Source of the DNA: Candidatus Marinacidobacterales bacterium
GTDB lineage: Bacteria; Acidobacteriota; Vicinamibacteria; Marinacidobacterales; DATDRI01
Direction of reading: 5' to 3'
NCBI GenBank assembly: GCA_965226495.1
Contig: OZ245365.1
Coordinates: 3,488,001 to 3,552,000, forward strand
DNA length: 64,000 nucleotides
The first letter of the stretch is position 1; each line of letters opens with the position of its first letter. The notes under the pieces were generated by a model that did no database searches, was not told where the DNA came from, and worked only from the letters and a program-made list of their open reading frames with translations. The position numbers and the translations under genes are program-made. This document shows positions 51,567 through 64,000 of this stretch, piece after piece.

Positions 51567-51968
51567 TTGACAACTACCAATAAGCTTCAATACTACGGAA
51601 CCGGGAAGAGGAAAACATCCGTAGCCCGAGTTTTTCTGCGCCCAGGCAAAGGACAAATTCAGGTCAACGGACGTCCTCTCGAAGACTACTTCCCCAGCGA
51701 CACTCACAAGATGGTCGTCAAGCAGCCGCTTCAGCTCACGGAGTCGTCGGACAAGTTCGACGTTCACGCCAAGCTTCGCGGCGGAGGACTCACTGGCCAG
51801 GCCTGGGCGTTGCGGCTCGGCATGAGCCGCGCGTTGTGCGACTTCAACCAGGAGCTCCGAGGGAAGCTGAAGGCGGCAGGGTTTCTCACGCGGGACGCGC
51901 GTATCAAGGAGCGCAAAAAGTATGGCCAGCCGGGTGCCCGCAAGCGGTTTCAGTATTCCAAGCGTTAG
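51567..51968 (+). CDS. rpsI: 30S ribosomal protein S9
   Basis: [26 protein letters not shown]...QYSKR. Confidence 0.98.
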
Positions 51969-51979
51969 GGAGGATCTTT

Positions 51980-52810
51980 TTGGCGTCAACTTCGATAACG
52001 ATGAAAGAGCTTCTGGAGGCAGGGGTTCACTTCGGTCATCAGACGAAGAGGTGGAACCCGAAAATGAAGGAATTCATCTTCGGGGAACGAAACGGAATCT
52101 ATATCGTCGATCTTCAAAAGACACTCAAGCTCTTTAGAGAAGCCCTGAAGGTCGCCACGCAGCTCGGTGCCGAAGGCAAGACGGTCCTGTTTGTGGGCAC
52201 CAAACGCCAGGCTCAGGTCGTCGTCGCCGAAGAGGCCGCCCGCGCCGAAATGTATTACGTCAACCAGCGCTGGCTGGGCGGACTCCTCACGAATTTCTTC
52301 ACCGTCAAGAAGAGCATCGCACGGCTGCGAGAACTGAACGCGATGGCCACCGAGGGCCGATTCGACGAGCTGTCGAAGAAAGAGGTTTCCCGTCTAGAGA
52401 AGGAACGGAGACGGCTGGAGAAGAATCTGCGCGGAATCCAACATATGGACCGGCTGCCGGACGCGGTGTTCGTGATCGACTCGAACCGCGAGGCCATTGC
52501 AGTCCACGAAGCCCGTAAGCTCGGGATTCCCGTGATCGCCATCGTCGACACCAATTGCGACCCGGAGCAAGTCGACCACGTGATCCCGGGGAACGACGAT
52601 GCGCTCCGCGCTATCAAGCTTTTCACTTCGCGGTTGGCCGATGCCATCATCGATGGCCGCCAGATGCGGGAAAGCCTCCCGCCCCTCCCATCTAAGGAAG
52701 GAACCGGCGAAGACGTCGAGCCCGCCGAAAACAAAGGGACCGCCGAAGCGGGGGCGACCGCGGGAGCAGGATCGCAACAGCCCGCTCAAGTACTTCCTCC
52801 CCCCGCCTAG
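51980..52810 (+). CDS. rpsB: 30S ribosomal protein S2
   Basis: [33 protein letters not shown]; TTG start with SD GGAGG. Confidence 0.97.
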
Positions 52811-52822
52811 ACAACAACCCCT

Positions 52823-53018
52823 GTTCGCCGACAGTTCATCATCCCTGAAAGGGGCACTTTCCCCGCAGGGGGCATCCGGTTTACGGAATTGCTCCGAACC
52901 GAAGTGGTCATGCACCAACTGGAGGCGGCCAGCCGGCGGTTTGGAGCGCTGCCCCAGCCTGCGACTACTTTCTGCTTCAGCCTGGGCACACTTCATGGGA
53001 TGATGAGCGCCGGCGAGC
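52823..53018 (+). ncRNA. Candidate structured RNA (about 196 nt) between rpsB and tsf
   Basis: Nested pairings GTTCGCCG/CGGCGAGC, GTTCATCATCCC/GGGATGATGAGC, CGCAGG/CCTGCG, GCTCCGAACCG/CGGTTTGGAGC; G-U pairs favour the plus strand. Confidence 0.35.
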
Positions 53019-53058
53019 GCTAGAATCACCCGTCATTGGGAGAAAGCAGGCCAGAGAA

Positions 53059-53667
53059 TTGAGCAACGTAACCGCTTCCGAAGTAAAAAACCTAAGGGAA
53101 AAGACCGGCGCCGGTCTCATGGAGTGCAAGAAGGCGTTGGTAGAGGCCGACGGTGATGTGGACCAAGCGGTCACCATCCTCCGTAAGCGAGGTCAGGCAG
53201 CCGCCGAAAAAAAGGCCGGCCGCACAACTTCAGAGGGGCTCATCGGCTCCTACGTTCACGGAGGCAAGATCGGGGTTCTCATCGAGGTTAATTGCGAGAC
53301 GGACTTCGTCGCCAAGACTCCCGAGTTCCAAGAGTTGGTCAAGGACTTGGCGATGCAAGTTGCCGCGGCTAGCCCGGCCCCCGCACGGTTCGTGAGTCGT
53401 GAAGAAGTTCCCGAAGAGGTCCTGGTTAAAGAACGTGAGATTTTGAAGAGCCAGGCAGAAGCCTCGGGCAAACCACCCAACGTAGTGGACAAAATCGTCG
53501 AGGGCAAACTGGGCAAGTTCTACTCGGAGGCGGTTTTTTTGGAGCAGCCGTTTATCAAGAACCCGGACGCGACGGTTAAACAACACATCTCGTCGATGAT
53601 CGCGATGCTCAAAGAAAACATCCAGGTGCGCCGCTTCGAACGGTTCGAGCGCGGCGAGCCTGTTTAA
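53059..53667 (+). CDS. tsf: Elongation factor Ts (short form)
   Basis: [26 protein letters not shown]. Confidence 0.97.
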
Positions 53668-53738
53668 AATGGACTGGGAAACGACTCGCCCGCGGGGCGG
53701 GAGCTCTTACCGAAGACGTCAATCGAGCAGACACGGAG

Positions 53739-54461
53739 ATGCCGACTAAAAAGCCGGTCTACAAACGCATTCTGGTCAAGCTCTCCGGCGAAGCCTTGAT
53801 GGGCGGGCAAACCTTCGGCATCGATCCGCAGATGTTCCAGATGATGGCGCGGGAGATCCAAGAAGTGCAGGCCTTGGGAGTGGAGATTTCGGCGGTGATC
53901 GGCGGTGGAAACATCTTCCGCGGAATGGCACCTTCCGCTCGCGGGATGGATCGGGTCTCCGCCGATCACATGGGGATGTTGGCGACCGTTATCAATGCCC
54001 TCGCCCTCCAAGACGCCCTCGAGAAACTGGGCACGCACACCCGTGTCCTGTCGGCCATCGAAATGCGTGCAGTCGCCGAGCCTTTCATTCGCCGGCGGGC
54101 CATTAGGCATCTAGAGAAGGGCCGCGTCGTGATCTTCGCGGCCGGCACGGGAAACCCTTACTTCTCCACCGACACCGCTGCCGCGCTGCGCGCCATGGAA
54201 ATAAAGGCGGACATCATCCTTAAGGGTACGAAGGTCTCCGGAATCTACTCGGCCGATCCCGAGAAAGACACAAACGCGACGCGGTTCGATACCATCACCT
54301 ACCTCGAGGTCATCGAGAAAGGCCTCAAAGTAATGGACACTACCGCCATATCTTTATGTATGGATAACCGACTCCCGCTGATCGTGTTCGATGTACGGGA
54401 GCCGGGCAACATGAAGCGGGTCGTCTGCGGCGACAAGCTCGGCACAATGGTCCGCAGCTGA
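53739..54461 (+). CDS. pyrH: UMP kinase
   Basis: [27 protein letters not shown]. Confidence 0.97.
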
Positions 54462-54506
54462 GCACGAAAGAACGGCTCCGCAGGCTCTCCCAGGGAGGTC
54501 AGGGCC

Positions 54507-55064
54507 ATGTCAAAGACAATCATCGATGACGCAAAACGGCGCATGGACTCATCGCTCGAAGTGCTCAAGAAAGAACTGGTGGCGATTCGAACCGGCCGTG
54601 CCTCTCTTGCCATCTTGGATGGTGTCACGGTCGACTACTACGGAACCGAGACCCCTCTGAGTCAGGTGGCAAATCTTGCGGTTCCAGAAGGGAACCTGAT
54701 TACGGTGCAGCCGTGGGAGCCAGCGCTGCTGTCTGAGATCGAAAAAGCCATTTTGTCTTCCGAGCTCGATCTCAACCCGGCCAACGATGGCAAGCTCCTC
54801 CGGATTCCCATCCCTCCTCTCACAGAGGAACGGCGCAAGCTCCTGGTGAAGCACGTCAGCAAGGTAGCCGAAGAGAGCCGGACCGCCATCCGACAAGTGC
54901 GTCGGGATGCCAACGATCACTTGAAGGCGCGCCTCAAGGAAAAGGAGCTCTCGGAAGACGACGAGAAGCGTGCACTAAAGCAAGTACAGGACCTTACAGA
55001 CCAGCACATCAAGTTCGTCGATGAGCTCGCAAAGAAGAAGGAAGAAGAGCTCTTGACGATATAG
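54507..55064 (+). CDS. frr: Ribosome recycling factor
   Basis: IRTGRAS, PPLTEERRK, SEDD. Confidence 0.97.
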   Translation: MSKTIIDDAKRRMDSSLEVLKKELVAIRTGRASLAILDGVTVDYYGTETPLSQVANLAVPEGNLITVQPWEPALLSEIEKAILSSELDLNPANDGKLLRIPIPPLTEERRKLLVKHVSKVAEESRTAIRQVRRDANDHLKARLKEKELSEDDEKRALKQVQDLTDQHIKFVDELAKKKEEELLTI

Positions 55065-57589: not shown

Positions 57590-58612
57590 ATGCGGATCCT
57601 ACTAAGAGGTTGGGTTACGTCGATATTAGCGGCAATCTGCGTGGCGGGGTGCGTTCAAAGCGAACCAGAAGGTTCCAGCACCTCGCCTTCCGGGGAGGGG
57701 AAGTTCCTGAGCATAGGTACCGCCCCTCCCGGGGGAGCGTTCTTCGTTGTCGGCGGCGCAATCGGTGAGGTTCTCAACGAGCATCGCGGCCCGAACAACT
57801 GGGATGTGACCGCGGAGGCCACGAAAGGTTCACAAGAGAACATCCGTCGCCTTGCGACTGGCGAGCTTGAGCTCGGCTTGGCGAACTCCGCCATTACGTA
57901 TTTCGCCGTCCGCGGTGAAAGAGGCTGGGAAAAGACCTACGATATGCGCACGGTGATGACTTTGGCTTCGAACGTCGCGCTGTTTGTCACTCCTGTCGAC
58001 TCCGGAGTACGCGAGATTTCCGACTTCAAGGGAAAGCGGATCGTTGTCGGCGTAGCGGGGGCTGGCTTCGAATACTTCGTGGGACCTCTTCTAGCGGCTC
58101 ACGGTGTGACCTATGAGGACTTCAGTGCGCTCCACAACACACAAATCGGCGCAGTCGACATGCTTAGCGACGGCGCAGCAGCGGCCGCATTCCTCGGCGG
58201 CGCCGTGCCCACCGCCTCCATCACTCAAGCCTCAACGTCTCGGGACGTCCTCTTCATTCCTTACTCGGATGAAGCGAAAAAAGAGCTCGTCCGAACATAT
58301 CCATTCTTCCGTCCGGCCACGATTCCGGCCGGCACCTACCCCGGCCAGGACGAAGACTTCGACGGACTGGACGTTGGCTCCATGCACTTAATCACGAGCT
58401 CTGCCGCGGACGCAGAGTTGATCTACCAACTCACGCGCACGATTTATGAGAATCGAGACGGCGTTACCGAAAAGCACGCCGCCGGCCGGGCCATCACTCC
58501 CGGGAATGTGATTCGCGACACGGGAACGCCCTTTCACGCGGGAGCGATCAGGTACTACGAGGAGATCGGCATTTGGACCGCGGGCGTCGTTAAGAACTCC
58601 GGAAGCCCTTAA
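57590..58612 (+). CDS. TAXI family TRAP transporter solute receptor (lipoprotein)
   Basis: VAGC lipobox, IGTAPPGGAFF, TKGSQEN, PFHAGAIRYYEE. Confidence 0.9.
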   Translation: MRILLRGWVTSILAAICVAGCVQSEPEGSSTSPSGEGKFLSIGTAPPGGAFFVVGGAIGEVLNEHRGPNNWDVTAEATKGSQENIRRLATGELELGLANSAITYFAVRGERGWEKTYDMRTVMTLASNVALFVTPVDSGVREISDFKGKRIVVGVAGAGFEYFVGPLLAAHGVTYEDFSALHNTQIGAVDMLSDGAAAAAFLGGAVPTASITQASTSRDVLFIPYSDEAKKELVRTYPFFRPATIPAGTYPGQDEDFDGLDVGSMHLITSSAADAELIYQLTRTIYENRDGVTEKHAAGRAITPGNVIRDTGTPFHAGAIRYYEEIGIWTAGVVKNSGSP

Positions 58613-58625
58613 ACCACCCTCCTAA

Positions 58626-60581
58626 ATGTCGGCCCGGGCACGCGAAACGGTCATGCGTGTGCTCGCGTTCCTCCTCTGCGTTTTCACTCTGGCGGAAGTG
58701 AACTATCCCCGGCTTTCCCCGCAGTCGCAGTTGGCGATCTTCGCGATGCTGGGGATCGTCTGGGGTTTCCTGGCGTCGCCGATGGCCCCGCGGTGGAGCG
58801 GGACTCGGTTTTCCACCGCGGTCGACATCCTTGCCTCCTTAGCTACCACGGCCACCTGCCTCTACATCGTCGTGCAAACGGAGCCCTGGCTCCAGTCCTT
58901 CTGGTTGGACGAGCGCTCTCTGGGCGATCGCGCAGGAGCCGAGACCGCTACCGACGTCTTCATCGGGCTCGTCGGCGTCCTGCTCGTACTCGAGGCGACA
59001 CGGCGCTCCCTCGGTGTCGCACTGCCGATGCTGGCGTCGCTCTTTTTGGGGTACGCGTATTTCGGAGCTTATTTCCCGGACTGGCTCTTCCCACACCGCG
59101 GCTATTCCGCGGAGCGAATCGTCGCCCAGACGTTCCTTCATAGCCAGGGGGTCTTCGGCACCGCGCTCAAGGTGATGTTCACGTATGTTTTTCTCTTCGT
59201 TCTCTTCGGCGCCCTGCTCGAAGTGACCGGGGCGACACAGTTCATCATTGACTACGCGCAACGGATCTTTCGAGGCTCCCGGGGCGGCGCCGCCAAGGTC
59301 GCGGTCCTCGCCAGCGGACTGATGGGCTCGCTCTCTGGCAGTGCGGTCGCGAACGCGGCGACGACCGGAACCTTCACCATTCCCCTCATGCGAAGCTCAG
59401 GCTTCCGGCCCCACATCGCAGCGGGAGTGACCGCGGCGGCGAGCGCGGGCGGTGCGCTCGTTCCTCCGGTTATGGGTGCCGGTGCCTACATGATGCTCGA
59501 GATCATCGATCCTCCGGTCACCTATCTCCAGATCGTTCGCGCCGCGGTGATACCAGCGTTCCTGTTTTACTTGGCGCTCTTTCTTATCGTTCATTTCTAC
59601 GCACATCGCGTTGGCACGACCGAGCAAGTTGACACACCGCGTGGTCGCGGCAGTAACAACCGATTCGAGGGCTTCGTCTTCGTCAGCGCACTGGGGTCTT
59701 TGATCTTCTTCTTGCTCGCTGGCTACACCGTCTTTCGCGCCGTCACCCTTGCTCTCGGGGTGGTCTTCATCACCAGCTTCTTCCATCCTCGCACACGAAT
59801 CGGCCTTAAGCGCGCCGCCGACGCGATGGAAAGGGCCGCTCGTGGTGGCATTTCGCTCATCGCCGCTTCAGCGTGCGTCGGGATCATTCTCGGCGTCGTA
59901 ACGCTCACCGGCATTGGAACCAAGTTCCCGTCCTTGATCTTGCAGATGGCCGGCGATAGCCTCCCCCTCGCGTTGGTTTTGATTATGGTCGGCTCCATCG
60001 TCCTGGGCATGGGCCTGCCATCAGCCGTCTGTTATCTGCTCATGGCGACCCTCATTGGGTCGGTTCTCAACCAGTTGGAAGTTGTGCCACTCGCGGCGCA
60101 CCTTTTCATCTTCTATTTCGGAATGATGTCGATGGTGACGCCGCCGGTCGCGCTGGCGGCCTATACCACCGCTTCCATTGCCGGCGCCGGGATCATGCCG
60201 TCCGCTTTCGCTGCCTTCCGGTTCGCCCTCGTGGGCTTCACGCTTCCCTTCATGTTCGTGTTTCGGCCGGAGCTTTTGTTCATGACACCGAGCGGCGACA
60301 CCCCGGGATTAACAAGTGTGGGGATCGCGGTGACGATGGCCATTCTGGGAATCATACCTCTCGCTGCGGGCATCGCCGGCTACCTCTGGACACCCCTTTC
60401 CATTGCCACGCGAGGCGGCTTGCTACTGGCATCGGGGTTCCTCCTCTACCCCGGTCAGGACAATTTGTTGGGATTGGGCCTATCGGTGCTCAATGTTGTG
60501 GGCGCGACTCTACTGGGTATACTCGTTTTCACTCAGTGGGCTCGACGGCCGCAGCGCGGTCGGGCCGACGAGAATGGCTAG
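58626..60581 (+). CDS. TRAP transporter fused 4TM/12TM permease
   Basis: LEATRR, GGAAKVAV, SGSAVAN, PPVMGAGA, LGMGLP, TPPVALAA. Confidence 0.92.
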   Translation: MSARARETVMRVLAFLLCVFTLAEVNYPRLSPQSQLAIFAMLGIVWGFLASPMAPRWSGTRFSTAVDILASLATTATCLYIVVQTEPWLQSFWLDERSLGDRAGAETATDVFIGLVGVLLVLEATRRSLGVALPMLASLFLGYAYFGAYFPDWLFPHRGYSAERIVAQTFLHSQGVFGTALKVMFTYVFLFVLFGALLEVTGATQFIIDYAQRIFRGSRGGAAKVAVLASGLMGSLSGSAVANAATTGTFTIPLMRSSGFRPHIAAGVTAAASAGGALVPPVMGAGAYMMLEIIDPPVTYLQIVRAAVIPAFLFYLALFLIVHFYAHRVGTTEQVDTPRGRGSNNRFEGFVFVSALGSLIFFLLAGYTVFRAVTLALGVVFITSFFHPRTRIGLKRAADAMERAARGGISLIAASACVGIILGVVTLTGIGTKFPSLILQMAGDSLPLALVLIMVGSIVLGMGLPSAVCYLLMATLIGSVLNQLEVVPLAAHLFIFYFGMMSMVTPPVALAAYTTASIAGAGIMPSAFAAFRFALVGFTLPFMFVFRPELLFMTPSGDTPGLTSVGIAVTMAILGIIPLAAGIAGYLWTPLSIATRGGLLLASGFLLYPGQDNLLGLGLSVLNVVGATLLGILVFTQWARRPQRGRADENG

Positions 60582-60672
60582 AATAGGGCCACTGCCGTCT
60601 GACGATGTCGGGTAATGGCACCGCCCTGTTTTGGGGGCCTAACAACAAACTCATCAGGAGCCCGTAAAGGTA

Positions 60673-62805
60673 ATGTTCGCTACTATCGCATTCGCTCTGG
60701 TTGTCGTGAGCGGGGCCATTTGGTGGGTGACTCTACGATTCCTCGGTGTCTATCGACGGGTTCCGGTCGAGAACTACGTCATTTGGGCGCTGGCGGCGGG
60801 TGTAGGGCTTTACGCCCTGATTCAGGAACCGTCGATCTTGAACGGTGCCGCGTTCCTGATTCCAACTGTCGTTTTGGGAGTAGCAGCTTGGTATTTGAAC
60901 ATAAGCGGCCAAGCGCGGTTTCCGAGAGACGAGCTTCGCCTCAAAGTCGGCGATCGTTTCCCTCGTTTCTCACTCCCCGACTCCCAGCGTCGACCATTCC
61001 AATCCGAAAGTCTGGAGGGGGTCAGCTCTGCACTCTATCTCTTCTACCGTGGAGACTGGTGACCCTTCTGCACGACGGAGCTGGGCCAGCTTCATAAGTT
61101 TCACGAGAAAGTCGCCGCAACCGGCGTCCAAGTCTTCGCCATCAGTGTAGATGCCCCCGACGTTTCGGAGGCGTTTCGCACCAAGGTTGGTGCCGAGTTC
61201 ACGTTCCTGTCCGACCAAGAACGAACCCTCATCGACCGGCTAAACATCAAGCACGACGACCCCTACGTGAACGCGGAGATCGCGTTCCCTACTGCGATAT
61301 TGGTCGACAAGTTCGGCATCGTCCGGTGGATTAACGCGATGCAGTATGGAAATACTCGAATGACGCCCAACGAGTTGTTCGAGGCCATCGAGCGTATGAC
61401 CCTCGAAGAACAAAACCGCGAGCTCAGAAGAGCGCGGGCGGTCAGCCAGGTGGTGCGGCAGGTCTTCTTGATGGAAAAGAGCGGTGACTTGGCGCAAGCG
61501 ATCCATGTCATGCGGGAAGAGCTCCAACGACTCGGGCTCGTTTTCTCACTATGTTCGATCACGATTTTCGATGAGGGGGCCGACGCGCTCAAAATCTACC
61601 GGGATGCAAGTGAGACCAGAGACGGTGCAGCGGTCAAGGTGCTTCCGGTATCGCCGGTATCTGATGTCCCGATTCTCCAAGACCTAGTGACGGCATGGCG
61701 GGAAACGCGCGTTTTTTGTGAGAACGTCGACATATTTGATGTTCGTTCCATCCTGAGCGTCCCATTCAGTCACGGAACCGTCGTGCTCGGCGGAACGAAG
61801 CCGGATCAGTTCGAGGAAGACGACATCCATACGCTCGAAGAGTTCGCAAAAGCCATCTCCGTCGGTTACAAACGCTTCCTCGACTTCCAAGAGCTGGATC
61901 GCCGCAACCATGAGCTCCAAGAGACGCAGTTGCAGCTCATTCAATCCGAGAAGATGGCCTCGCTCGGGCAGTTGGTGGCGGGAGTGGCCCATGAGCTCAA
62001 CACACCTATGGGAGCGATCAATAGCAACGCTCAGATCGCCGCGACTGCTTTGGCGCGGGTTCGGAAGGCCCTGGAGGACGGTCGGCTCTCCGAGGAACCG
62101 ACCCGGCGGCGCTTCTCCGAGCTCGTTGCAAACCTCGAAAATCTCAATGGGGTTAATCGAGACGCGTCGGTTCGCATGATCAGAATCGTCGACAGCCTCC
62201 GAAGCTTCGCGCGGCTCGACGAGGCGGAGTGGAAGCGCGCCGACCTGAAAGAGGGGCTCGAAGTCACACTCAGCCTCATGCAGCATGACCTCGGCAACCG
62301 TATCAAGGTCGTCAAGGACTATGGAGACCTGCCCGATGTTCCCTGCTATCCCAAGCAGCTGAATCAAGCATTCTTGAGCCTCTTGATGAACGCCGTCCAG
62401 GCTATCGATGGCAACGGGGAAGTCCGTATCCAAACTCATTGCGACGCGGCTCACGCGATTGTCAAGATTACCGACGACGGGCATGGGATCCCCGAGGAAC
62501 ACCTCGGCCGGATCTTCGATCCCGGCTTTACCACCCGCGGGGTGGGAGTCGGGACTGGCTTGGGGCTCGCGATCTCGTATCGGATTATCGAGAACCACCA
62601 AGGGACCCTCAGCGTGCAAAGCGAAGTTGGCAAAGGCTCCACTTTTACGATAGAGATACCGCTGCGCGCCGACGCGCCGCAGCCAACAAAGTTAGCTGGC
62701 AGGGTGCTGACGGATTCACGGCGCCCTGCGCGAGGAGCCATCAGCGGTCCCGAAGCCGCTCGCCGGCGAAGGGACGGCGGTGGGGGTGGGGCCCCGCCGC
62801 AGTGA
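60673..62805 (+). CDS. Putative selenocysteine-containing sensor histidine kinase (3 TM, AhpC/TSA Prx-like UxxC, GAF-like, HisKA, HATPase_c), 710 aa, Sec at codon 130
   Basis: In-frame TGA at 61060-61062 in FYRGDW-U-PFCTTEL; frame stays open through 61063-61266 (GVQVFAISVD, FTFLSD) into ORF 61267 (AFPTAILVD...VAHELNTP...GTGLGL); SECIS-like hairpin downstream. Confidence 0.8.
61077..61093 (+). promoter_or_regulatory. Candidate bacterial SECIS element
   Basis: GGAGCUG-GGC-CAGCUUC: 7-bp stem (one G-U), G-initiated apical loop 21 nt after the UGA. Confidence 0.6.
62777..62800. repeat. GC-rich hairpin repeat, core GTGGGGGTGGGGCCCC (copy 2), overlapping the kinase 3' end
   Basis: gcggtgggg-gtgggg-ccccgccgc; shares a 16-mer with 34627-34642. 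Confidence 0.6.
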
Positions 62806-62975
62806 TGAAGGAGCGAGCCCGGCCCGAGTGGGCCGACGACGGGAAGCCGAGCGAGGAGCGAGGCGCCAAGCGCGCGAACGAAGAGTGAGCGCGCATTGAT
62901 GCAGTTCTAAAGACCGGCCCGAAAACACGGAACTTTTGAGCGCTCAAGATCGTTTCAACCCGCGGCGGAGACATT

Positions 62976-64000
62976 ATGCTGCATAGACTTCTTGGAACTC
63001 TTCTTACTTTGTCGTTCGTGCTGTTAGTCGGCCTCATGGGTCTTGCTGAACCGGCTCAATCTGCACAGTCGAAAAGCGGCCCCCTCTTCGAAGAACCGTT
63101 GAGCCCACGCATCGCCAACTACCAGATCGACGTCAAGTTGACCCCCGAGACGCGGACCCTCGAGGGAAAGCAAGTGCTGACGTGGTACAACAAAACCGGT
63201 GAGACGATTGACGAGCTCCGATTCCATCTCTATCTCAACGCCTTTCGCAACTCTCGCACTACCTTCATGCAGGAATCGGGAGGCACGATGCGCGGCCACG
63301 CCATCGACGAAGAAGGATGGGGTTTCATCGAGGTCGACCGCTTGAGCCTATCCCAGCTCGAAGAGCGGACCGACGATCGCCTACGACTCTATCAACCAGG
63401 GGTCGGCTCTGACTGGCGCGAGGTTTTTCGAATCAACGCCGCCGCAACGGGAGCCGACCTCACCGAAGCCATGGAGTTTATCCAACCAGACGACAGCAAC
63501 GAACACGACAAGACGGTGTTCCGGGTGCCGCTACCCACGCCGCTCGCGCCGGGTGAAGGGGTGGCCCTCGACTTCGAGTTCCGAGCCCAGCTCCCGACGC
63601 CGCCTTTTGCGCGCACCGGCGCCAAGGAAGAGTACTTCTTCGTCGGCCAATGGTTTCCGAAGATCGCCGTCCACGACGGTGGAGAATGGAACGCTCACCA
63701 GTTTCACTACAACTCGGAGTTCTTCGCCGACTACGGGGTCTACGACGTGCGGATGACGGTTCCCGAAGACTTCGTACTGGGTGCGACCGGCTTGGAGGTG
63801 GAGACCATCGACAACGGCGATGGGACGACCACTCACTACTACCACGCCGAAGATGTCCATGACTTCGCCTGGACCGCGAGCCCGGAGTACCAGGTCTTCA
63901 CCGGCGAAACGCAAGATGTGAAGATCAGGGCGCTGGTACAGCCGGACCACGTCGGGCAAGGAAAACGCCATATCGAGGCCGCCAAAGTCGCGGTGAGTTT
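62976..64000 (+). CDS. M1 family metallo-aminopeptidase (partial; runs off the right edge)
   Basis: Not in the ORF track. Signal peptide, PLSPRIANYQIDV, LRFHLYLNAF, GQWFPKIAV, EFFADYGVYDV, AEDVHDFAW. Confidence 0.85.
   Translation, partial: MLHRLLGTLLTLSFVLLVGLMGLAEPAQSAQSKSGPLFEEPLSPRIANYQIDVKLTPETRTLEGKQVLTWYNKTGETIDELRFHLYLNAFRNSRTTFMQESGGTMRGHAIDEEGWGFIEVDRLSLSQLEERTDDRLRLYQPGVGSDWREVFRINAAATGADLTEAMEFIQPDDSNEHDKTVFRVPLPTPLAPGEGVALDFEFRAQLPTPPFARTGAKEEYFFVGQWFPKIAVHDGGEWNAHQFHYNSEFFADYGVYDVRMTVPEDFVLGATGLEVETIDNGDGTTTHYYHAEDVHDFAWTASPEYQVFTGETQDVKIRALVQPDHVGQGKRHIEAAKVAVS

Follow-up and report, generated by a model that had tools for sequence, protein, structure and literature searches.

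In a 64,000-nucleotide stretch of the genome of a Candidatus Marinacidobacterales bacterium (GenBank assembly GCA_965226495.1, contig OZ245365.1, positions 3,488,001 to 3,552,000, forward strand), hereafter called the window, we describe a gene which very probably encodes one predicted selenocysteine (Sec)-containing fusion protein. Its N-terminal part would be a membrane-anchored, peroxiredoxin-like (Prx-like) thioredoxin-fold domain with a U-x-x-C centre and its C-terminal part a histidine kinase, and what is new is the signalling architecture, the selenoprotein module itself being known. As to its function, we lean slightly towards the UxxC centre being the sensory switch of the kinase. The features concerned are listed in Table 1.

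When TGA is translated as U, window positions 60673-62805 form one frame of 710 codons whose sole internal stop is the TGA at 61060-61062 (codon 130), the gene's own terminator at 62803-62805 being likewise a TGA. The open reading frame (ORF) listing divides this frame into a 129-residue ORF (60673-61062) and a mechanically called 512-residue ORF (61267-62805), and the start of the latter falls in the middle of the AhpC/TSA fold, a domain which Pfam recovers whole only when the TGA is read through (here and below, the read-through protein was searched with U read as C). The read-through product spans LYLFYRGDW-U-PFCTTELGQL. A sequence-only reading of this stretch had claimed that the two ORFs share a frame with only this TGA between them, that reading through it yields FYRGDW-U-PFCTTELGQL with the TGA at the first position of a W-C-P-F-C-type motif, and that the result is a complete AhpC/TSA fold fused to HisKA and HATPase_c behind about three N-terminal transmembrane (TM) helices; the listing and translation reproduced the first two claims (the motif reads W-U-P-F-C), and the domain searches described next bore out the rest.

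The AhpC-TSA family (PF00578) matches residues 92-219 with an E-value of 3.1e-26 and 92.2 bits, and the Redoxin family (PF08534) matches with 63.7 bits. Farther on, HisKA (PF00512) is found at residues 431-517 with 31.7 bits, above its cut-off of 26.9, and HATPase_c (PF02518) at residues 560-665 with 87.5 bits; the invariant residues of the latter are N573, D601-x-G-x-G605 and G627-x-G-x-G631, which we take to be the N, G1 and G2 boxes. A HisKA match above threshold together with HATPase_c marks the protein as a predicted class I sensor histidine kinase. At the other end, hydrophobic stretches lie at about residues 1-22, 33-51 and 53-77 in all 10 aligned homologues, as delimited by a hydropathy script rather than a trained predictor, and the segments after stretches 1 and 3 are rich in K/R. 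Past the third stretch no more hydrophobic segments occur before the kinase core, and because none follows, N-out/C-in is the sole topology that fits an ATP-using kinase downstream; all domains beyond the anchor would thus be cytoplasmic. Between the redox domain and the kinase core there are two further regions. The first is a helical linker of the pattern E-R-x-T-L-E-E-Q-N-R-E-L-R-R...V-V-R-Q-V-F-L-M, which exits the redox domain and ranks among the most conserved parts of the protein (invariant columns L244, E246-L251, R255 and V260-M267). The second is a middle domain that the sequence-only reading had called GAF-like, and this assignment is weak: GAF_2 matches residues 272-396, with 22.6 bits under a cut-off of 28.6 and in three of 10 members, while a comparison of the middle-domain profile with the PDB gave no meaningful match (best E-value 0.8).

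Table 1. Positions of the predicted features in the window (strand + throughout) and the observations on which each rests.
Feature	Position	Strand	Basis
Whole gene, 710-residue predicted selenoprotein histidine kinase	60673..62805	+	Sec codon 130; stop TGA 62803-62805; full-length homologues at 48-53% identity
Predicted N-terminal membrane anchor, three hydrophobic helices, residues ~1-77	60673..60903	+	hydropathy and K/R counts, 10/10 homologues
AhpC/TSA (thioredoxin-fold, Prx-like) domain, residues 92-222	60946..61338	+	PF00578, PF08534; 10/10 homologues; PDB matches BCP/PrxQ, ResA
TGA predicted to be read as selenocysteine U130, first position of U-P-F-C	61060..61062	+	same column in 20/20 genomes keeping the segment; Cys in stand-alone homologues
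Cys133, putative second redox residue	61069..61071	+	invariant 10/10; aligns with peroxidatic Cys column of BCP-type peroxiredoxins (2ywn, 2cx3)
Candidate bacterial SECIS hairpin	61077..61093	+	core GAGCU/AGCUY at 61078-61082 / 61088-61092; starts 18 nt after U of UGA
Conserved helical linker, residues ~232-270 (...ERMTLEEQNRELRR...VVRQVFLM)	61366..61482	+	many invariant columns
Middle domain, weakly GAF-like	61486..61860	+	invariant Cys294, Trp342 and P-F-x-H-G motif
HisKA / DHp domain, predicted phospho-acceptor His440 (codon 61990-61992) in A-H-E-L-N-T-P	61963..62223	+	PF00512; H440 invariant
HATPase_c catalytic ATP-binding domain	62350..62667	+	PF02518; 10/10 homologues
TAXI/TRAP transporter genes upstream	57590..60581	+	NMT1_3 receptor 57590-58612; fused DctM permease 58626-60581

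Standard gene calling cuts these genes at the TGA and so hides the architecture. In a collection of 5.8 billion proteins, 50 out of 50 relatives start after the TGA, have 410-585 residues and cover only 15-46% of the N-terminal region; where they are named, they are labelled as an ordinary "signal transduction histidine kinase", and one is a "hypothetical protein". Such annotations are what one would expect if the TGA were a true stop in a split or decaying gene, giving a 129-residue membrane peptide and a soluble kinase made from an internal start, and it also speaks for this alternative that the gene's own terminator is the same codon and that eight of the 21 copies known to us from the order carry other disruptions. 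We nevertheless consider it very improbable. A stop at this place would halve a single fold at its active site, the machinery for Sec insertion is present together with a Sec-containing SelD, Cys aligns with the TGA in homologues, residues 131-198 are strongly conserved as protein, and two families agree in the frame, the position of the TGA and the flanking protein (about 50% identity), as the following comparison documents.

A six-frame search of 40 relatives gave full-length matches of about 50-55% identity, each with "1 TGA" inside. When the N-terminal 270 residues were used as the query, 21 genomes of the order Candidatus Marinacidobacterales (Acidobacteriota), out of 55 searched, proved to have the fusion, the counts by family being 5/7 in f1, 15/19 in f2 and 0/28 in f3. 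The TGA stands at one alignment column in all 20 genomes that keep the motif segment, namely at 19 loci found by pattern search, where the motif reads F-Y-R-G-x-[W/F]-U-[P/L]-F-C, and in genome G003; none of these 20 copies has Cys at that position. Homologues thus keep both the fusion and the TGA, in agreement with the sequence-only reading. Ten intact copies align over the full length (48-53% identity to the window copy), with F132, C133, E136, L137, G138 and His440 invariant in 10/10, and residues 131-198, which lie between the TGA and the first possible start, are strongly conserved as protein. Because the TGA occupies the same column in 20/20 genomes and protein conservation runs straight across it, its presence in the frame is not due to chance. 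Thirteen of the 21 copies are uninterrupted in one frame. One unpublished genome (G007) enters only the 40-relative search, the 21/55 count and the count of SelA in the order given below, and no conclusion hangs on it.

It could also be supposed that the codon is really TGC or TGT and that the TGA arose by a sequencing or assembly error, given that the window comes from a single-contig assembly of an uncultured organism and that the records of relatives are named as metagenome-assembled genomes. This supposition is effectively refuted. The stretch occurs in 20 public runs, which come from eight studies, and contigs of four of these runs, each from a different study, cover 61060-61062 with zero differences (one of the runs may be the source sample), so that independent assemblies show TGA there, as had been read from the window alone; the same TGA is moreover found in 19 other genomes. 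As a separate observation, the contigs of three runs are broken around the TGA and the hairpin described below, at a piece of 38 nt (window 61054-61091) whose depth is about double that of the flanks and which is therefore common to another sequence in the samples.

The genome to which the window belongs, a 6.34-Mb single contig that is 94.8% complete, contains what Sec insertion would call for. SelA was found with 474 bits, SelB with 378 bits (cut-off 242) and SelD with 333 bits, the last having an in-frame TGA of its own within S-A-G-U-A-S-K, and a tRNA-Sec scored 70.9 bits in Rfam, with the anticodon TCA (UCA) assigned by ARAGORN; selA, selB, selC and selD are thus all there. The gene for SelD, the selenophosphate synthetase, lies outside the window, at G000:C1:5697778-5698710 (locus L019), and has a longer hairpin directly after its UGA. 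SelA occurs in 54 of the 55 genomes of the order, the exception being an 83%-complete draft, and with SelA nearly everywhere its co-occurrence with the fusion across these 55 genomes is non-discriminating.

For a bacterial selenocysteine insertion sequence (SECIS) we assume a stem-loop shortly downstream of the UGA with a G in the apical loop, and the spacing rule is that of the bSECISearch model. The candidate hairpin in Table 1 has a 5-bp core that is conserved in 19/19 sequences: four of its pairs do not vary at all, the fifth alternates between G-C (17 sequences) and G-U (two), and the loop is G-rich. In the window genome the stem extends to 7 bp, with the loop GGC. The four synonymous sites in the stem never break a pair (19/19), although family-wide codon use, with 79% for GAG, 75% for CAG and 67% for CTY, leaves room for other choices; such fixed synonymous sites would lend modest support to the hairpin, the sequences being related. 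A lower stem spotted by eye, UUCUG/CAGAA, pairs in only some sequences and was dropped.

The best PDB sequence matches of the AhpC/TSA domain are BCP/PrxQ-type peroxiredoxins (2ywn with an E-value of 1.8e-11, 4g2e, 2cx3), followed by ResA/TlpA-type thiol-disulfide oxidoreductases. In the alignment to 2ywn and 2cx3, C133 falls on the column of the peroxidatic Cys, whereas the Thr and Pro columns of P-x-x-x-T-x-x-C are occupied by U130 and R126, respectively; of the peroxiredoxin motif P-x-x-x-T/S-x-x-C only the Cys is kept. Neither is there an Arg at the position aligned to the Arg of K-R-A-V in 2ywn, which we take to be the catalytic one. The domain would thus share fold and Cys position with BCP/PrxQ proteins and differ from them in a motif that is more like W-C-x-x-C of thioredoxin and ResA; judged by these alignments, the centre resembles a thioredoxin-type site placed on a peroxiredoxin scaffold and not a canonical peroxidase. 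From the sequence-only reading's "peroxiredoxin-like UxxC domain", the AhpC/TSA fold and the U-x-x-C stand, and the name peroxiredoxin is less apt, other residues standing in place of the Pro and Thr of PxxxTxxC; "thiol/selenol redox switch" has the firmer basis. Direct reactivity of a selenolate with peroxide is chemically plausible.

The module is, by its sequence features, a predicted member of a known selenoprotein family, the Prx-like thiol:disulfide oxidoreductases (PF00578, UxxC/UxxU), which appear in published tables of prokaryotic selenoproteins (PMC9312934, PMC13188914; also PMC1794560), in agreement with the sequence-only reading. Common to both are the AhpC/TSA fold, a U-x-x-C with Sec first, homologues in the Cys form and the same comparative logic of prediction. 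The known members, however, are listed there as stand-alone oxidoreductases, whereas the window protein adds a three-helix anchor, a GAF-like domain and a kinase core.

With a profile of the N-terminal 272 residues, an exhaustive search returned 13,740 proteins at E <= 1e-3 (26 at E <= 1e-30), of which the best 150 were inspected. These contain stand-alone proteins of about 230-280 residues which span the whole module and have Cys replacing Sec, as well as many fragments with one end at the Sec position. The protein P0053, with an identical F-Y-R-G-D-W-C-P-F-C and 48% identity over 162 residues (E-value 6e-54), is one of the Cys-form homologues, and P0055, P0057, P0058 and others align in the same way; the module therefore forms a classical Sec/Cys pair. 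A Cys-form kinase fusion was seen neither in 50/50 word-indexed matches nor among the best 150 of the 13,740 profile matches. Of 401 sampled Acidobacteriota genomes, 58 have a match to the module (57/400 besides the window's own), and at the 66 places listed besides that of the window, a TGA was found in 61, no stop in four and only a TAG in one. Nineteen of these loci (L065-L083) were translated and all are stand-alone, of about 200-280 residues, most of them with N-terminal hydrophobic helices, and with the TGA within [F/Y]-[F/Y]-R-G-x-W-U-x-x-C in 19/19. The 401-genome count includes two unpublished genomes, G206 and G078, whose loci (L073 and L077) are among the 19 stand-alone rows and also in the tree described below; here too, no conclusion hangs on them. 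A two-pattern search for related loci mostly matched kinase cores, one of the patterns being in the H-box.

A related module also occurs in front of a different output. In P0125 (512 residues) and P0152 (553 residues), a coiled coil links a TM and Prx-like CxxC module to a domain of the class III nucleotide cyclases (Guanylate_cyc, E-values 3e-46 and 8e-48, respectively), and their module is 27% identical to that of the window protein (E-value 1e-24). They share with the kinase a homologous membrane-anchored Prx-like module with a coiled coil and a signalling output behind it, but have Cys for Sec, a cyclase instead of a kinase, no GAF-like middle domain, and they form a separate clade. In a midpoint-rooted tree (the row of G001 was left out for a frameshift) the Prx-like modules of the kinase fusions form one clade (99/99), split along two taxonomic families, which points to a single old fusion maintained across both of them. 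Its neighbours are Cys-form stand-alone proteins and then the cyclase fusions, on branches of 85-90 that are not strongly supported.

The explanation of the whole to which we give a cautious preference, mechanism included, is a membrane-anchored cytoplasmic sensor kinase with a UxxC redox input. In this mechanism, UGA-130 would be decoded as Sec by SelA, SelB, SelD and tRNA-Sec, aided by the short hairpin 18 nt downstream. The U130 selenolate would react with an oxidant (peroxide, disulfide or electrophile), possibly at the membrane surface, upon which a selenenylsulfide bond would close between U130 and C133. The resulting change in the thioredoxin fold would travel via the conserved exit helix, the GAF-like domain and a coiled coil to the DHp helix with His440, and the balance of kinase and phosphatase activity would shift toward an unlinked response regulator, until reduction by a thiol system resets the U130-C133 pair. 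Selenium redox chemistry would thus probably switch a signalling pathway. Three observations speak for a sensory role. Few parts of the protein are as conserved as the linker that exits the Prx-like domain; one type of module sits before two unrelated signalling outputs, a kinase and a cyclase, which favours an input-type role; and the fusion modules form a single clade, which indicates that one old fusion was kept across two families. Repeated fusion to signalling outputs is what input domains usually show. The sequence-only reading had likewise proposed a peroxide or thiol-redox sensor wired into two-component signalling, and the cyclase fusions strengthen this proposal. Cysteine-based redox-sensing histidine kinases such as ArcB and RegB/PrrB use isolated Cys in linker or DHp regions. 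The likeness to them would lie in the reversible oxidation of a chalcogen residue, which is proposed to control a class I HisKA/HATPase_c kinase; unlike them, the window kinase would sense by a dedicated thioredoxin-fold domain with Sec.

The main rival of this explanation is that the UxxC domain is an enzyme, a working thiol:disulfide oxidoreductase or hydroperoxide reductase tethered to a kinase whose stimulus is a different one, perceived by the GAF-like domain or by way of the membrane helices and the adjacent transporter; the redox centre would then serve catalysis and not signal input. Stand-alone 3-TM plus Prx-like U/CxxC proteins are common, as their presence in 57/400 other Acidobacteriota genomes indicates, and they are presumably enzymes; TGA is in the same motif in all 19 stand-alone loci inspected. 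It also fits that redox domain and kinase have a separate GAF-like domain between them, and that same-strand transporter genes lie directly upstream in both families (TRAP here, SSF in f2). On the other hand, the linker from the redox domain to the next domain is highly conserved, a related module is fused to cyclases too, as is typical of input domains, and the GAF assignment is itself weak. We thus regard a tethered enzyme as unlikely, while taking it more seriously than any other alternative.

Several further points weigh against a redox-sensing selenoprotein kinase as proposed here. The GAF-like domain could be the real sensor, and the fusion could join an enzyme to the kinase that regulates it. 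None of the 11 neighbourhoods compared (the window genome and 10 others) has an adjacent response regulator. As to the hairpin, RNAalifold on 19 sequences finds a conserved stem of 5 bp only, with 0 compensatory changes, the 66 nt after the TGA fold no more stably than shuffles (z = 0.10), and the conservation could partly reflect the conserved peptide E-L-G-Q-L. Moreover, eight of the 21 copies have frameshifts, a deletion, an extra stop or kb-scale interruptions. In G002, of the same genus and 93% identical (locus L027), residues ~77-148 are deleted, the UxxC included, and these sequences suggest that the gene is dispensable in some lineages. Some of the disruptions may be assembly errors, but the deletion in G002 and the interruptions in G003 and G026 are too large for simple indel errors. 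In the last two genomes (L061/L064 and L040, respectively) the pieces of the gene lie 1.5-2.6 kb apart, and the interrupting DNA could be a mobile element.

In bacterial Sec insertion, decoding of UGA depends on selenium supply, and it may therefore be asked whether UGA-130 is regulatory: a full kinase would be made when selenium is available and synthesis would stop at 129 residues when it is not, so that the amount of kinase would report selenium supply rather than redox state. Apart from this established dependence, such a gate would agree with Sec being replaced by Cys in 0/20 copies though Cys stand-alone forms exist. However, it is precisely the redox-active position of a CxxC-type motif that the Sec occupies, a placement which is explained by chemistry and which a simple gate does not need, and no selenium-uptake or selenium-metabolism genes are adjacent in the neighbourhoods examined. 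We find a selenium gate improbable.

Returning to the sensor kinase with a UxxC input, we found no description of a Sec-containing or AhpC-TSA-fused histidine kinase in full-text literature searches, the name of the order included (PMC5109826, PMC9312934, PMC1794560, PMC13188914, PMC13326102), as far as the accessible text of these sources goes; their supplements, including the BSepDB family tables, might file such genes under "Prx-like". In the accessible portions of two reviews, from 2022 and 2026, and of the 2026 BSepDB paper, "kinase" is used only for PSTK, and "sensor" and "two-component" are absent. Selenoprotein families named in the overviews, to the extent that these are accessible (PMC9312934, PMC13188914), are enzymes or uncharacterised redox or transport proteins, with no signalling kinase among them. 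The statement of the sequence-only reading that no characterised kinase of this architecture was known agrees with what these searches gave.

Taken jointly, the protein would be the first selenoprotein of two-component signalling, its UxxC centre would perceive the stimulus, the 3-TM plus Prx-like C/UxxC module would represent an unrecognised family of redox inputs on at least two outputs (the kinase in the Sec form and class III cyclases in the Cys form), and the kinase would need selenium chemistry; on this combination of claims our confidence is evenly divided. If it is true, the strict retention of Sec (20/20, never Cys) would reflect a need for selenium chemistry, e.g. a fast reaction with an oxidant or resistance to irreversible over-oxidation, and bacteria would use selenium for perception, besides catalysis. 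It would also offer a case from nature in which to study the preference for Sec over Cys, with a phosphorylation signal instead of turnover as the read-out. The Cys-form cyclase fusions, in turn, suggest that redox input domains make up a broader class which has gone unannotated.

In the window genome, the roughly 9 kb to each side of the kinase gene contain no response regulator, which accords with the claim that no cognate one is adjacent, and the protein is an orphan kinase. A scan for promoters and terminators over 60300-63100 was uninformative, giving 0 promoter-like sites and one terminator-like site, on the opposite strand within the gene (fewer than in shuffles). The TAXI/TRAP transporter pair ends 91 nt before the kinase gene, on the same strand, and co-transcription is possible; the downstream neighbour encodes an M1-family peptidase. 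In family f2, an SSF symporter gene lies directly upstream and a gene for a DUF1028 protein directly downstream, both on the same strand, with gaps of a few tens of nt by coordinate arithmetic. A link to solute or peptide uptake would be a guess. A Mutator-family transposase gene lies about 5 kb downstream of the kinase gene, beyond the window end (L164:7656-8966, genome 3557655-3558965), and near it, on the opposite strand, there is an SSF symporter gene homologous to the upstream symporter of f2. A local rearrangement may explain the different neighbourhood in the window genome.

Two minor observations concern the C-terminal end of the protein. Its last ~40 residues (window 62683-62802), which are rich in Arg, Gly and Pro and end in GGGGGAPPQ, are without a match in the nine other homologues of the alignment. 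In this Gly/Arg-rich tail, at 62745-62785, 39 nt are missing from one contig each of three runs, which suggests strain variation. Elsewhere in the window, positions 51836-55064 hold rpsB, tsf, a pyrH-like amino-acid kinase gene and frr in this order (Pfam Ribosomal_S2, EF_TS, AA_kinase and RRF), and this cluster is followed by genes for a PALP enzyme and an AlaX-like tRNA_SAD/DHHA1 protein.

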